Source of the DNA: Escherichia coli
GTDB taxonomy: Bacteria > Pseudomonadota > Gammaproteobacteria > Enterobacterales > Enterobacteriaceae
Reading direction: 5' to 3' (one strand)
Length of the DNA stretch: 64,000 nucleotides
NCBI RefSeq assembly: GCF_003018255.1
Contig: NZ_CP027440.1
Shown here: positions 44,140-49,700 of the stretch, piece after piece
How positions within the stretch are numbered: the first letter of the stretch is position 1
How the letters are laid out: each line of letters opens with the position of its first letter
The notes under the pieces: model-generated
What the model was told of the DNA's origin: nothing
Seen by the model: only the letters and a program-made list of their open reading frames with translations
Database searches by the model: none
Translations under genes and position numbers: made by a program

Positions 44140-45273
44140 TCATGGCCTTTGCGAGGCGCGTCCCAGATAGCTGTCCCAGTCTTTCCATACCGGCTGCAAA
44201 CCCTGAGCAGTTAACGCGGCAGCAACCGCTTCCGGTCTGCGATCGTCGTGCGGTGAGAACTGTTCCAGCTCGGGGTGATTGTCGGCATAGCCACCTGGCT
44301 GCGTTTTCGAAAAAGCGCTGACGTTATTAATTGCCAGCGGAATAACGCGATCGCGAAACCACGGTGATTCCCGCGTGGAGAGTGACAGTTCAATCTCCGG
44401 TGCAAGCAGCCGGAAGGCGCAGATGGTTTGCACTAACTGGCGTTCATCCATAATCGACGCAGGCTCAATGCCGCCAGTACATGGACGCAGGCGTGGGAAG
44501 GAGATAGAGTAGCGGCTTTGCCAGTAATGCTGTTGCAGCCATAGCAAATGTTCTGCAACCATATAGCAGTCAACGCGCCAGCTGTCGGAAAGGCCAATTA
44601 GCGCGCCGAGGCCTATCTTATCAATCCCCGCACGGCCCAGCCGATCCGGCGTTTCCAGCCGCCAGAAGAAGTCCTGTTTTTTACCTTTCAGATGATGGCG
44701 GGCATAAGTCGCCTCGTGATATGTCTCCTGATAAACCATCACGCCATCCAGACCTAGTTGCTTTAACTCGGCGTATTCCGTCTCCGCCAGCGGTTGCACT
44801 TCCATCTGTAGTGAAGAGAACTGTTCACGCAGGGCAGGGAGATGACGACGAAAGTAATCCATCCCCACTTTCACCTGATGTTCACCAGTGACTAATAGCA
44901 GATGTTCAAAGCCCATCTCCCGTATAGCGGCGCTTTCCCTGGCAATATCCGCTTCATCCAGCGTTTTGCGCTTGATGCGATTGCTCATGGAAAATCCGCA
45001 GTACGTGCAGTCGTTAGCGCAAAGATTGGAAAGATAAAGCGGGACGTAGAAGCTGACGACGTTGCCAAATCGCTGACGGGTCAGACGCTGCGCCCGTTGG
45101 GCCAGTGGTTCCAGATAGCCACTGGCGGCTGGCGATAACAGCGCCATCATATCGTCGCGGGTGAGTTGCGAGGCATTTAGCGCCCGCTCTACGTCAGCAG
45201 CCGTTTTGCTGTTGATACGCAGGCGGATGTCGTCCCAGTCCAGTTGTCGCCAGCGATCGCTGAAGGTTTTCAT
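44140..45273 (-). CDS. thiH: 2-iminoacetate synthase ThiH (radical SAM, 377 aa)
   Basis: [41 protein letters not shown] start; CxxxCxxC radical-SAM motif ([10 protein letters not shown]). Confidence 0.95.
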
Positions 45274-46040
45274 GCTGATGCCTCCAGAAATCCGGTCAGC
45301 GGGCTGGTGGCATGAGCAAAATGACTGCGGCTGCCCGGTCCGGACTGACGTGCCAGCAGGCCTGCTTCTACTGCCAGACGAAATGCCTTCGCCATGTTGA
45401 CGGGATCGTCCGCGACGGCAATCGCCGTATTCACTAACACCGCGTCGGCCCCCATTTCCAGCGCCTGCGCGGCATGGCTGGGAACGCCGATGCCAGCATC
45501 GACAACCACCGGAACCGTGGCTTGCTGGGTAATAATCTCCAGCATGGCACGGGTTTCCAGTCCCTGATTCGAGCCAATCGGCGCGCCGAGCGGCATCACC
45601 GCTGCACAGCCGACTTCTTCCAGACGTTTACACAATACCGGATCGGCCCCGCAGTAAGGCAGCACGACAAATCCCTGTTGTACCAGCGTTTCGGCGGCTT
45701 TCAGGGTTTCGATGGGATCGGGCAACAGCCAGCGGGCGTCAGGGTGAATCTCTAATTTTAACCAGTTTGTGCCTAACGCTTCACGAGCCAGATGGGCGGC
45801 GAAAATGGCTTCTTCCGCTGTTTTCGCCCCGGATGTATTTGGCAGCAGGGTCACACCCGCCGCGATAAGCGGTTCGAGGATAGCGTCGTTGTGCTGGCGC
45901 AAGTTGACGCGTTTCATCGCCAGTGTCACCAGTTGGCTGCCGCAAGCGCGGATCGCCTCCATCATCAGTTGTGAAGAGGCGAATTTCCCTGTGCCGGTAA
46001 ACAGATGTGAATCAAACGTTTTGTCCGCAATACGTAACAT
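45270..46040 (-). CDS. thiG: Thiazole synthase ThiG (256 aa)
   Basis: ORF 45270..46298; the internal start giving [32 protein letters not shown] matches ThiG; stop overlaps thiH start. Confidence 0.93.
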
Positions 46041-46041
46041 C

Positions 46042-46242
46042 TCAACCCCCTGCAATAACCTGAAAAAGCAGGATCTGGTCGCCATCCTGCACGATATGTT
46101 GCGCCCACTGCTCACGCGGGACGATTTGCTGATTAATCGCCAGAGCCGCGCCCGATTGTCGTTGGTCGAGTTGCTCCAGTAGTTCGTGAACCGTTTGCCC
46201 GGCGGCGCACTGCATCGGTTGATCGTTAAACAGGATCTGCAT
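46042..46242 (-). CDS. thiS: Sulfur carrier protein ThiS (66 aa)
   Basis: [66 protein letters not shown] with C-terminal GG. Confidence 0.92.
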
Positions 46243-46981: not shown

Positions 46982-47609
46982 CGCCAACTCCTGCAATTTC
47001 CAGCAACTGTGCCGTTGCCAAACGCCAGTCTGCGGCTTGAGTAATGGCGCTTACGACGGCGATGCTGCCGACACCCGTTGCTATCACCGCAGGCGCGCGC
47101 GCCAGACTGATACCGCCAATCGCCACGGTGGGATAATCCGCCAGGCGCTCAACATGCCGTGCCAGCTGTTCCAGCCCCTGCGGTGCAGAAGGCATCTGTT
47201 TGGTTTGCGTCGGGAACACATGTCCCAGCGCGATATAAGAGGGGCGTGCTGCCAGCGCGACGTCGATCTCCATATCGTCATGGGTCGAAACGCCCAGTCG
47301 CAGACCTGCCGCGCGGATGGCGCTGAGATCGGTGGCTTGCAAATCTTCCTGCCCCAGATGGACGCCATATGCCTGATGCTTGATCGCCAGCCGCCAGTAA
47401 TCGTTGATAAACAATCGCGCGTTATAGCGGCGGCCCAGCGCAATTGCCGCCACGACATCGGCTTCCACCTCTTCATCGCGTCGATCTTTGATGCGTAGCT
47501 GGAGAGTACGTACGCCTGCATCCAACAGACGTTCGATCCACTGTACGCTGTCCACCACCGGGTACAGTCCTAAACGAAAGGGTACAGGAGGAAAATCTGG
47601 CTGATACAT
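46974..47609 (-). CDS. thiE: Thiamine-phosphate synthase ThiE (211 aa)
   Basis: [42 protein letters not shown]; overlaps thiF start and thiC stop. Confidence 0.93.
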
Positions 47610-49504
47610 CACGCTTCCTCCTTACGCAGGTAGATTTCTCCGCCTCTGGCGCGGAAGTTCTCCGACATATCAGCCATTCCCACTTCAATGGTTTGCGCGG
47701 CGGCGTAATCGCGCACTTCCTGGCTGATTTTCATCGAGCAGAATTTCGGCCCACACATGGAGCAAAAATGGGCGACTTTGCCGGATTCTTGCGGCAGGGT
47801 TTCATCGTGATAAGCGCGGGCGGTAAACGGGTCGAGGGCCAGATTAAACTGGTCTTCCCAGCGAAATTCGAAGCGGGCTTTCGACATGGCGTTATCGCGA
47901 ATTTGCGCGCCCGGATGCCCTTTCGCCAGGTCAGCGGCGTGGGCGGCAATCTTATAGGTGATAAGCCCCTGCTTAACATCTTCTTTATTAGGCAGACCCA
48001 GATGCTCTTTTGGCGTTACGTAACAGAGCATCGCGCAGCCAAACCAGCCAATCATCGCCGCACCAATCCCCGACGTGAAGTGGTCATAACCCGGCGCGAT
48101 ATCGGTAGTTAGCGGCCCCAGAGTGTAAAACGGCGCTTCGTGGCAGTGCTCTAACTCCTCGGTCATATTGCGGCGGATCATCTGCATCGGCACGTGGCCT
48201 GGGCCTTCAATCATCACCTGTACGTCATATTCCCAGGCGATTTTGGTCAGTTCACCCAGCGTATGCAGCTCGGCAAATTGCGCTTCATCGTTGGCGTCCT
48301 GAATAGAACCAGGGCGCAGACCGTCTCCCAGCGACAGCGAAACGTCATAAGCGGCACAGATTTCACAAATTTCGCGGAAGTGTTGATAGAGGAAATTTTC
48401 CTGATGATGGGAGAGGCACCATTTCGCCATAATCGAACCGCCGCGAGAGACGATACCGGTCAGGCGTTTCGCGGTCATCGGCACATAGCGCAGCAGTACG
48501 CCCGCATGGATAGTGAAGTAATCCACACCTTGCTCGGCCTGTTCCAGCAGCGTGTCGCGGAACGCTTCCCAGGTAAGATCTTCGGCGATCCCGTTAACCT
48601 TCTCCAGCGCCTGGTAGATCGGCACTGTACCGATCGGCACCGGGCTGTTACGCAAAATCCACTCGCGGGTTTCGTGAATATAGCGACCGGTGGAGAGATC
48701 CATCACCGTATCCGCTCCCCAGCGCGTGGACCATACCAGCTTTTCCACTTCTTCTTCGATGGAAGAGGTGACCGCCGAGTTGCCGATATTGGCGTTAACT
48801 TTTACCAGGAAATTGCGACCAATAATCATCGGCTCCGATTCCGGATGATTAATGTTGGCCGGGATAATCGCGCGTCCGGCAGCAACTTCATCACGGACAA
48901 ATTCCGCAGTGATATTTTCCGGCAGACGTGCGCCAAAGCTCATTCCCGGATGCTGGTGGCGTAAAACTTCGCTACGTATGTGCTCGCGGCCCATATTCTC
49001 GCGGATGGCGATGAATTCCATTTCCGGTGTGATGATGCCCTGGCGGGCGTAGTGCAGTTGGGTGACGCGGCGTCCTGCTTTGGCGCGTTTTGGTGTTAGT
49101 ACGCCGCTAAAACGCAGCTCGTCGAGGCCATCATCTGCCAGCCGCGCTTTAGTGTAATCGGAACTGCGCACGGTAAGTTCTTCGGTATCGCCGCGCGCAT
49201 CGATCCACGGCTGGCGTAGTTTTGCCAGTCCTTGCTGCACGTTAATGGCGATCTGTGGATCGCCATACGGACCGGAGGTGTCGTAGACCGGAATCGCTTC
49301 GTTTTCTTCGTACTGCGGTTGTTCTTTGCTGCCGCCAATTAGCGTCGGGCTAAGCTGGATCTCACGCATCGGCACGCGCACGCCGGGGTGTGTGCCAGTG
49401 ATGTAAATGCGTTTTGAGTTGGGAAAGGCGGTGCCTTCCAGGGTGTCGATAAAATGTTGGGCCTGGGCGCGTTGTTCGCGGCGGGTCAGTTTTGTTACAG
49501 ACAT
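47609..49504 (-). CDS. thiC: Phosphomethylpyrimidine synthase ThiC (631 aa)
   Basis: [51 protein letters not shown]; C-terminal [11 protein letters not shown] Fe-S motif. Confidence 0.96.
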
Positions 49505-49519
49505 AGCTCATTCCAAAAA

Positions 49520-49700
49520 GTTAAGGACGTGGCTTGTCAGACGACGGATGAAGCAAGAGACGATCGCCGCAAAGGCGATGCGATAGCAGATTAACTCTTG
49601 TTCCCTTCGCAGGTATTAGCCTGATCAGGTTCCGCGGATCCCGAATAAACGGTCTCAGCCAGTTAAGGCACTCCGACAAGAAATTAGCCCCACAAACGGG
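49520..49700 (-). promoter_or_regulatory. thiC leader with TPP riboswitch (thi-box)
   Basis: Reverse strand of about 49640-49680 contains GGCTGAGACCGTTTATTCGGGATCCGCGGAACCTGATCAGGCTAATACCTGCGAAGGGAAC, i.e. the CUGAGA thi-box core, directly upstream of thiC. Confidence 0.8.

Follow-up and report, generated by a model that had tools for sequence, protein, structure and literature searches.

An intact thiCEFSGH operon behind a TPP riboswitch in Escherichia coli: packed gene junctions and the 5' end of the thiC leader

Thiamine phosphate is made from two halves: the pyrimidine is produced by ThiC and the thiazole by ThiF, ThiS, ThiG and ThiH, the last two of which form a complex, and the halves are joined by ThiE. 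Few systems in E. coli have been characterised as thoroughly as the thi operon with its enzymes and its riboswitch. For the K-12 allele of the thiC leader, TPP binding and the conformational change have been demonstrated, and the response to TPP, the dependence on Rho (and NusG) and the pause at the start codon are all known from K-12; no premature termination took place in vitro without Rho (PMC5234074). Closely packed genes have also been studied for their translation. Overlaps of -4 (ATGA), -1 (TGATG) and -8 nt are the three commonest classes in E. coli (PMC6728339, PMC10666635), and strict coupling was seen in four of the five gene pairs tested that overlap by -4 or -1 (Huber et al. 2019, PMC6728339). 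Stop-to-start distances of -8 to +10 nt are treated as predictive of termination-reinitiation, and genes for partners in a complex are over-represented in overlapping pairs (Huber et al., PMC10666635).

The window, by which we mean the whole 64-kb stretch of E. coli DNA analysed here, carries what is almost certainly the canonical E. coli thiCEFSGH operon, read as a single mRNA under the thiC TPP riboswitch. Its six genes are as follows.

47609-49504, minus strand: thiC, phosphomethylpyrimidine synthase, 631 aa (NCBIfam NF006763, 1072.8 bits, cut-off 650; Pfam PF01964)
46974-47609, minus strand: thiE, thiamine-phosphate synthase, 211 aa (NCBIfam NF002904, 423 bits, cut-off 231, residues 1-210)
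46226-46981, minus strand: thiF, ThiS adenylyltransferase (E1-like), 251 aa (TIGR02356, 289.1 bits, cut-off 275.25)
46042-46242, minus strand: thiS, ubiquitin-like sulfur carrier, 66 aa (TIGR01683, 71.8 bits, cut-off 37.45)
45270-46040, minus strand: thiG, thiazole synthase, 256 aa (Pfam PF05690, 371.8 bits, cut-off 23, residues 4-247)
44140-45273, minus strand: thiH, 2-iminoacetate synthase, radical SAM, 377 aa (TIGR02351, 525.9 bits, cut-off 380)

All six proteins exceed curated family cut-offs of NCBIfam or Pfam, ThiG through its Pfam family, as none of the NCBIfam thiG models scored above its own cut-off. The expected motifs are in place. ThiC has the C-terminal CX2CX4C cluster motif (C581-SM-C-GPKF-C), ThiH the CX3CX2C motif (C85-ANDC-TYC), and ThiF the nucleotide-binding GxGxxG at residue 35 (G35LGGLG), D127, C184 and two CxxC zinc motifs (C169YRC and C240PVC). 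ThiG has Lys95 in the context NWLKLEIHP, which we take to be the catalytic imine-forming lysine, and ThiS ends in QVIAGG with its Gly-Gly present. ThiF aligns end to end (residues 1-251) with residues 1-251 of PDB 1ZUD, and ThiS residues 1-66 align with PDB 1F0Z and 1ZUD. The coordinates agree among the open reading frame listing, the sequence itself and the RefSeq/PGAP annotation of the 100%-identical genome NZ_AP045067.1, which includes a riboswitch feature in this region. The preliminary description of this DNA had named the six genes, their order and the minus strand correctly, and had called the operon intact and its biology known, which our check for frameshifts and premature stops upheld. 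No evidence against the identification was found.

The comparison with K-12 MG1655 (b3994, b3993, b3992, b4407, b3991 and b3990) shows the same order, strand, lengths, start and stop codons and five junctions, with rsd upstream and rpoC downstream of the operon in both. Per-gene nucleotide identity is 96.7-98.5%, and the proteins differ by 25 amino acid substitutions in total, six of them in thiC (dN/dS 0.056) and eight in thiH (dN/dS 0.092). The region was found in 5,419 of 5,426 complete E. coli genomes. On the thiH side, a hairpin preceded by an A-tract and followed by a run of seven U (44063-44057) was seen in the RNA fold of 43945-44142; it lies about 50-80 nt past the thiH stop and its sequence is identical to that of K-12.

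44056-44093, minus strand: candidate intrinsic, possibly bidirectional terminator of the operon

A simple terminator scan made no call at 44056-44093, apparently because of its loop limit of 3-8 nt. Farther along this flank, yjaZ and sroH are missing downstream of thiH: where K-12 has 945 bp with yjaZ and sroH between rpoC and thiH, the window has 23 bp instead.

Upstream of thiC, the leader has every element of the published thiC switch. We use the leader numbering of Chauvier et al. 2017 (PMC5234074), in which 49686 is +1, and we checked it against C7, G16, G31, U184, C187 and U188 of that work.

49712-49740, minus strand: promoter-like motif, TTGAGT (49740-49735), 17-nt spacer, TAATTT (49717-49712)
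49687-49702, minus strand: GC-rich, terminator-like hairpin GCCCCgtttgtGGGGC (terminator scan), with a U-rich run behind it that passes into P1
49585-49685 (to 49686 with the published +1), minus strand: TPP riboswitch aptamer (THI element), Rfam RF00059
49680-49672, minus strand: P1 5' strand CUUGUCGGA, nt 7-15
49547-49587, minus strand: C-rich, G-poor part of the platform, nt 100-140, the published Rho-utilisation (rut) region (PMC5234074)
49533-49541, minus strand: anti-P1 3' strand UCUGACAAG, nt 146-154, complementary to the P1 5' strand
49500-49538, minus strand: hairpin sequestering the ribosome-binding site (RBS), nt 149-187 (fold with P1 forced; folds of the isolated platform)

The preliminary description had placed a thi-box leader before thiC and proposed a covariance-model scan. 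In our scan of the whole 64-kb window, this leader matched RF00059 at 74.8 bits, where the gathering score is 54.3 (E = 6.8e-13), and over the full length of the model (positions 1-105 of 105). The conserved cores that contact the ligand are present, CUGAGA in J3/2 and ACCUGAUC...GGUUAAUACC...GCG in P4/P5, and the cores GGCUGAGA and GAACCUGAUCAGGCUAAUACCUGCGAAGGGA were aligned at posterior probability '*'. The aptamer is identical to that of K-12. An aptamer before thiC was also detected at the gathering score in 11 of 14 other genera, and in two further genera it has an insertion in P3.

The rest of the leader folds in the manner of a two-state switch. The long-range anti-P1 pairing forms in the unconstrained minimum-free-energy fold; when P1 is forced, GACAAG switches from the anti-P1 pairing to the RBS hairpin. 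This hairpin is closed by GACA (49538-49535) paired with UGUC (49503-49500), and it encloses the Shine-Dalgarno (SD) sequence GGAAUGAG (49514-49507) together with the thiC AUG (49504-49502). An equivalent hairpin is found in 33 of 33 leaders, that of the window and 32 from other genera, and the SD and anti-SD co-vary across them (GGAAU with UUCC, GGAGU with CUCC, GUGAG with CUCAC). The fold of the whole leader is no more stable than that of shuffled sequence (z = -0.96), as expected for a bistable RNA. In the mechanism that these elements suggest, nt 7-15 would pair with nt 146-154 without TPP, and this anti-P1 stem would leave the weak thiC SD and AUG free so that thiC is translated. With TPP bound, P1 would form, nt 149-187 would fold into the hairpin that buries the SD and AUG, and the C-rich rut region would be exposed, so that Rho would terminate at the start-codon pause (U184/C187, 49503/49500); C187 (49500) is the pause and Rho-termination site in K-12 (PMC5234074). 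Compared with the K-12 switch, the positions of the aptamer, P1, anti-P1, RBS hairpin, rut region and C187 are alike, and the platform hairpin differs in two loop bases, nt 114-115 (49573, 49572) (RF00059; PMC5234074). The whole leader has five base differences from K-12, all outside paired elements; the other three are at the upstream hairpin, one just 5' of its stem (49703) and two in its loop (49697 and 49692).

The genes themselves are packed with hardly any room between them, and the junction lengths of the preliminary description, including the thiS start embedded in thiF, proved exact to the base.

TGA 47611-47609 and ATG 47609-47607, minus strand: thiC/thiE junction, -1, with one A in common
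46974-46981, minus strand: thiE/thiF junction, -8, the 8-nt overlap ATGAATGA
46226-46242, minus strand: thiF/thiS junction, -17, a 17-nt overlap with the thiS start inside thiF
46041, minus strand: thiS/thiG junction, +1, one nucleotide separating the stop from the ATG
45270-45273, minus strand: thiG/thiH junction, -4, the 4-nt overlap ATGA

This -1/-8/-17/+1/-4 arrangement is the modal pattern among 25 Enterobacteriaceae loci from about 17 genera. In Vibrio, Aeromonas, Shewanella and the Enterobacterales outside Enterobacteriaceae, the order thiC-E-F-S-G-H behind a TPP aptamer is the same, and the spacing of thiS and thiG is 1-5 nt nearly everywhere; the usual value at thiF/thiS in this set, however, is -4 and not -17 or -20. 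Vibrio, Aeromonas and Shewanella have their ThiE-matching region at a long distance downstream of the end of thiC, and it is presumably part of a larger gene.

There are other ways to read this locus, and two of them can be dealt with briefly. The operon is rare in its exact form, as an identity of 99% or more over 6.3 kb is reached by only six of 5,420 genomes, and its thiH is the gene least like that of K-12 (96.7% identity); one could thus see in it a decaying or non-functional copy in a divergent E. coli lineage. We consider this highly improbable, given that all six genes are free of internal stops and frameshifts and have the lengths of their K-12 MG1655 counterparts, that the five longer ones (thiC, thiE, thiF, thiG and thiH) have dN/dS values of 0.05-0.17, and that the catalytic Cys, Lys and Gly-Gly motifs are all kept with no substitution at these positions; the riboswitch elements, as described above, depart from K-12 at two loop bases only. 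The terminator-like hairpin at 49702-49687 could in turn suggest that the switch works through an intrinsic terminator, a hairpin with a U-tract, like many TPP switches of Gram-positive bacteria. This hairpin, however, lies upstream of the aptamer and outside the expression platform, and the terminator scan found no terminator-like site between the aptamer (49585) and the thiC AUG (49504), which fits the Rho-dependent mechanism shown for K-12 and the Rho requirement for premature termination there (PMC5234074). An intrinsic terminator in the switch is accordingly about as improbable in our estimate as decay of the operon.

The third alternative concerns the meaning of the overlaps and deserves more weight. 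Each downstream thi start lies -17 to +1 nt from the stop before it and has its SD within the 3' end of the upstream gene, so translation of each such gene is most probably coupled to that of the upstream cistron, or at any rate follows close behind it. The overlaps could instead reflect genome compaction only, each cistron being initiated by free 30S subunits at its own SD with no ribosome handed on. This is possible because every one of the five downstream starts has such a site, with -6.9 to -12.1 kcal/mol against the anti-SD and a spacing of 3-6 nt; that of thiE is AGGAGG (-12.1 kcal/mol) and that of thiS is GGAGGA (-9.5 kcal/mol). While thiC/thiE, thiE/thiF, thiS/thiG and thiG/thiH fall within the -8 to +10 range of termination-reinitiation, thiF/thiS at -17 is outside of it (PMC10666635). 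Vibrio, Aeromonas and Shewanella keep the gene order with thiF/thiS and thiG/thiH gaps that are often tens to hundreds of nucleotides, and Xenorhabdus manages with an 18-19 nt thiS-thiG spacer bearing its own SD. Against independent initiation stands the conservation of the packing itself, the junctions of all 25 Enterobacteriaceae loci, and those of most Enterobacterales outside that family, being within -20 to +2 nt. The strict coupling of four of five tested -4 and -1 pairs (PMC6728339) points the same way, and so does the fact that thiF/thiS and thiG/thiH encode complex partners, the class enriched among overlapping genes; the ThiF-ThiS complex is seen in PDB 1ZUD. The pairs tested by Huber et al. 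(PMC6728339, PMC10666635) do not include thi junctions, which share the -4, -1 and -8 classes with them, and we found no experiment on the thi junctions in the literature on coupling. On balance we think it unlikely, though by no means negligible, that all cistrons are initiated independently, and translational coupling, which the preliminary description took the overlaps to imply, is a plausible and reasonable reading that we infer from the sequence.

One of these junctions shows a further feature. The codons of ThiS Gly65-Gly66, GGG GGT, are at the same time the thiG SD, in the order GGGGGU, UGAG, AUG.

46045-46050, minus strand: ThiS Gly-Gly codons doubling as the thiG SD (sequence; codon conservation)

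In 76 of 77 loci the penultimate Gly codon of ThiS reads GGA or GGG, for which the background is 29%; it is GGT in the three Xenorhabdus loci, where a separate intergenic SD is present in the spacer. The essential C-terminal Gly-Gly of ThiS may thus be under a synonymous-codon constraint because the same codons serve as the thiG SD, and this constraint may relax to GGT only where thiG has a separate intergenic SD. If this is true, no junction of the operon would be conserved more rigidly than thiS/thiG.

The other end of the operon is less settled. There is no recognisable -10 element upstream of the published +1 (49686), which lies at the 3' base of the stable GC-rich hairpin, and a conserved motif lies farther upstream; for these reasons the 5' end of the leader is uncertain. 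That motif, TTGAGT-17-TA(A/G)TTT, is conserved in every aligned Enterobacteriaceae leader, its TTGAGT contains the rsd stop codon, and it lies about 19-26 nt upstream of the primer-extension +1; it scored below the threshold of a simple promoter scan, and we regard it as a candidate thiC promoter. The hairpin, downstream of rsd and ending one base before the published +1, has a stem that covaries between genera (GCCCC/GGGGC, ACCTC/GAGGT, GCTCCC/GGGAGC, CTCCCTC/GAGGGAG). What looks like a terminator of rsd may then form the 5' end of the Enterobacteriaceae thiC leader, transcribed from a promoter at the rsd stop, and the published +1 at the base of the hairpin may mark a processed end or the point where reverse transcriptase stopped. 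In the comparison set of Vibrio, Aeromonas, Shewanella and Enterobacterales outside Enterobacteriaceae, by contrast, the promoter TTGTAG-16-TATACT adjoins P1 directly, without a hairpin. It is a tentative proposal, and somewhat more doubtful than not, that both hold together: a constraint on the ThiS Gly-Gly codons as the thiG SD and a real thiC promoter at the rsd stop.

The operon, its TPP riboswitch and its packed junctions are textbook biology, already known, and the copy in the window is a normal, intact allele and no discovery. It serves well as a positive control, in which the coordinates and the junction arithmetic of a description made from the letters came out exact. Beyond this, the locus offers two small, testable observations that may not have been described so far: the ThiS Gly-Gly codons that double as the thiG SD, and the uncertainty about where the thiC leader begins, with a possible promoter at the rsd stop.

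The thiCEFSGH operon, on the minus strand, is confirmed here as an already known operon that is intact, in support of the preliminary description. The window is a segment of the E. coli chromosome; rpoC, two rrn operons, oxyS and the btuB cobalamin riboswitch also lie in it. Over the 6.3 kb that surround the operon, two RefSeq genomes match the window at 100% identity, and the region occurs in 5,419 of the 5,426 complete genomes of E. coli. The gene coordinates proposed earlier match the RefSeq annotation of an identical genome, and all six Thi proteins pass their curated family thresholds.

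Genes of the operon and the riboswitch (RefSeq annotation of an identical genome, plus Rfam for the riboswitch), with protein family scores
49585-49685, minus strand: TPP riboswitch
47609-49504, minus strand: thiC; ThiC, NF006763, 1072.8 bits (cut-off 650)
46974-47609, minus strand: thiE; ThiE, NF002904, 423 bits (cut-off 231)
46226-46981, minus strand: thiF; ThiF, TIGR02356, 289.1 bits (cut-off 275.25)
46042-46242, minus strand: thiS; ThiS, TIGR01683, 71.8 bits (cut-off 37.45)
45270-46040, minus strand: thiG; ThiG, Pfam PF05690, 371.8 bits (cut-off 23)
44140-45273, minus strand: thiH; ThiH, TIGR02351, 525.9 bits (cut-off 380)

Other Rfam matches in the window
12833-12942: OxyS sRNA
17933-18122: btuB cobalamin riboswitch
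35257-35318: P26 match
23026-23125 and 63307-63406: StyR-44 copies, each shortly before the 23S gene of one of the two rrn operons

Compared with K-12 MG1655, the six genes have identical lengths, ATG starts and stop codons, and a search for frameshifts, premature or internal stops and length changes found none, which bears out the claim of intactness. At the nucleotide level the genes are 96.7-98.5% identical to K-12, 25 amino acids are changed overall, and the dN/dS of the five longer genes is 0.05-0.17; the value for thiS is uninformative because that gene has only three differences from K-12. None of the substitutions hits the motifs that define the chemistry of these proteins, which are all present: the C-terminal Gly-Gly of ThiS, C85-X3-C-X2-C in ThiH, C581-X2-C-X4-C in ThiC, K95 in ThiG, and GxGxxG, D127, the two CxxC motifs and C184 in ThiF. 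ThiF (residues 1-251) and ThiS (1-66) can also be aligned over their whole length with crystal structures of the E. coli proteins, among them the ThiF-ThiS complex 1ZUD. This alignment supports the annotated starts, and with them the proposal that the thiS start is embedded in thiF.

The thi allele is uncommon, being matched at ≥99% identity over 6.3 kb (44000-50300) in only 6 of 5,420 E. coli genomes; the remaining genomes are at 95-99%. The products of the flanking rpoC, rsd and nudC have RefSeq protein accessions that are widely shared. Between rpoC and thiH, the 945-bp K-12 segment with yjaZ (htrC) and the small RNA sroH is missing and 23 bp stand instead at 43953-43975, an arrangement that is contiguous as in the window in 1,635 of 5,420 complete E. 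coli genomes. The rpoC terminator stem (43926-43947, plus strand) differs from K-12 at one base (43928), where CCCGC of K-12 reads CTCGC; a U-G wobble takes the place of a C-G pair, so the hairpin is retained.

The TPP riboswitch that had been proposed ahead of thiC is recovered by the Rfam covariance model at full length on the minus strand (49585-49685), with 74.8 bits against a gathering score of 54.3, and both ligand-binding cores of the aptamer are intact in the model alignment. The mechanism of this riboswitch has been established in K-12 (Chauvier et al. 2017, PMC5234074). When the published numbering is placed on the window (+1 at 49686, the A of the AUG at nt 183, or 49504), a transfer verified at seven published residues, every published element of the K-12 switch is found in the leader, which within the transcript departs from K-12 at two loop bases only.

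Elements of the thiC leader
nt 7-15, minus strand: P1 5' strand CUUGUCGGA
nt 100-140, minus strand: rut region
nt 146-154 (49541-49533), minus strand: anti-P1 partner UCUGACAAG, pairing with the P1 5' strand
U184 and C187, minus strand: pause and Rho-termination positions

The unconstrained fold predicts the pairing of the P1 5' strand with UCUGACAAG, that is, the anti-P1 of the ON state. When P1 is forced, the fold produces a hairpin in which GACA (49538-49535) pairs with UGUC (49503-49500), made of the UG of the thiC AUG and the two following bases, while the Shine-Dalgarno (SD) site is engaged through its GGA, paired to UCC. With the anti-SD, the thiC SD pairs at -3.3 kcal/mol, the weakest value of the operon (the other starts range from -6.9 to -12.1), which fits a start site governed by RNA structure. 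A terminator scan found no intrinsic terminator in the riboswitch platform, the sole leader hairpin with a U-run being upstream of the aptamer; this agrees with the published Rho dependence. It is worth adding that the fold energy of the whole leader is no better than that of shuffled sequences (z = -0.96), and we therefore make no use of it and rely on the specific complementarities and their conservation across genera. Similarly, consensus scans of 43800-50400 were at chance level, with 2 promoter-like sites (4.4 expected) and 7 terminator-like sites (7.2 expected), and are thus not evidence for internal signals.

As an independent test of this conservation, 33 leaders of Enterobacterales, Vibrio, Aeromonas and Alteromonadales were folded between GACAAG and AUGUC. 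The same SD/AUG hairpin appears in all 33, and the SD changes together with its partner: GGAAU with UUCC, GGAGU with CUCC, GUGAG with CUCAC. The aptamer itself reaches the gathering score ahead of thiC in 11 of 14 loci of other genera. In two of the other three it is present with a large P3 insertion, scoring 41 and 39.8 bits with the remainder intact; the third is a Vibrio locus covered for only ~235 nt 5' of thiC, where the aptamer may extend beyond the available sequence. The insertion is a repeat of ~130 nt in the P3 loop, in one copy in Citrobacter sp. FP75 (~1810-1938 of its thi locus, L016) and two in Phytobacter massiliensis (locus L024, between CTTGTCGGAGTGCC and GGCTGAGA). Its core, GTGAAT..CCAGGAGCTTAC.TAAGTAAGTGACTGG, presumably resembles ERIC.

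The 5' end of the leader is less clear. The +1 of thiC comes from primer extension (Chauvier et al., PMC5234074), and it falls exactly on the 3' base of an upstream hairpin (49686), with no -10-like hexamer before it. Upstream of P1, the Enterobacteriaceae share TTGAGT-17-TA(A/G)TTT (TTGAGT-17-TAATTT in the window; region 49740-49687, minus strand), with the stop codon of rsd inside TTGAGT; next come a hairpin, its stem co-varying from genus to genus, and a U-rich run that merges into P1. Other Enterobacterales, in contrast, have TTGTAG-16-TATACT immediately before P1. No entry for thiC or rsd occurs in the supplementary data examined from the Cappable-seq and SMRT-Cappable-seq studies, and the rsd paper (PMC3089606) has nothing on an rsd terminator or a thiC promoter. 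The E. coli leader may start either at 49686 or ~19 nt further 5'.

The five junction distances described earlier match the sequence exactly. To place them in a wider context, a conserved thiG motif was searched in one genome per species and the six genes were then placed by tblastn, with starts called heuristically (closest to the E. coli N-terminus, ATG favoured, with an SD bonus). The window has the modal pattern of 25 Enterobacteriaceae loci from ~17 genera.

Junctions in the window and in Enterobacteriaceae loci (stop-to-start nt; negative, overlap; positive, gap)
thiC/thiE: TGATG, one base in common; modal -1 (17/18), alternative -4
thiE/thiF: ATGAATGA, 8-nt overlap; modal -8 (17/22), alternative -14
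thiF/thiS: 17-nt overlap; modal -17 (17/25), alternative -20
thiS/thiG: one base between TGA and ATG; modal +1 (24/25), alternative +2
thiG/thiH: ATGA, 4-nt overlap; modal -4 (18/21), alternative -1

In other Enterobacterales the junctions are mostly tight too, with different lengths, and 21 of 27 loci have thiF/thiS at -4 (ATGA-type). Vibrio, Aeromonas and Shewanella often have thiF/thiS and thiG/thiH junctions that widen to tens or hundreds of nt. Tight junctions are therefore conserved at the family and order level, but the pathway does not require them. The long overlap between thiF and thiS (-17 or -20; 46226-46242 in the window) is specific to the Enterobacteriaceae and, since -4 mostly takes its place elsewhere in the order, the few extra C-terminal codons of ThiF (SNADPV in the window) have the look of an extension at family level that covers the thiS start. 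Distances of +42 to +85 for thiS/thiG in several Aeromonas and Vibrio loci were rejected as mis-calls, there being an ATG 3-4 nt past the thiS stop. In four of the loci from other genomes (L012, L019, L033, L065) this ATG is in frame and well 5' of the E. coli-like ThiG N-terminus, which suggests an N-terminally extended ThiG in Aeromonas and Vibrio.

Such junctions had been taken to imply translational coupling. The commonest gene overlaps are -4, -1 and -8, pairs at -8 to +10 nt are enriched for complex subunits, and four of five overlapping E. coli pairs tested were strictly coupled, with no thi pair among them (PMC6728339, PMC10666635); a literature search for experiments on thi coupling found none. 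Because a good SD precedes each downstream start, we consider coupling of the thi cistrons a sound inference rather than a demonstrated fact, and the case is weakest for thiF/thiS, at -17.

The thiS/thiG junction carries a further constraint. The essential Gly-Gly codons of ThiS, GGG GGT in the window, lie 4-9 nt 5' of the thiG ATG (site 46050-46038, minus strand). Among 77 loci with a thiS-thiG spacing of ≤6 nt (within L004-L123, the loci from other genomes), 76 have GGA or GGG as the penultimate Gly codon, whereas these two make up 29% of all Gly codons of the thi genes in those loci, a difference whose significance a binomial p-value overstates because the loci are related; the neighbouring Ala codon and the final Gly codon are free to vary. 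Three Xenorhabdus loci act as a natural control: their penultimate codon is GGT, and an 18-19 nt spacer carries a separate GGAGG. The sequences thus give direct evidence for the end of thiS serving as the ribosome-binding site of thiG, with the Gly-Gly codons put to dual use.
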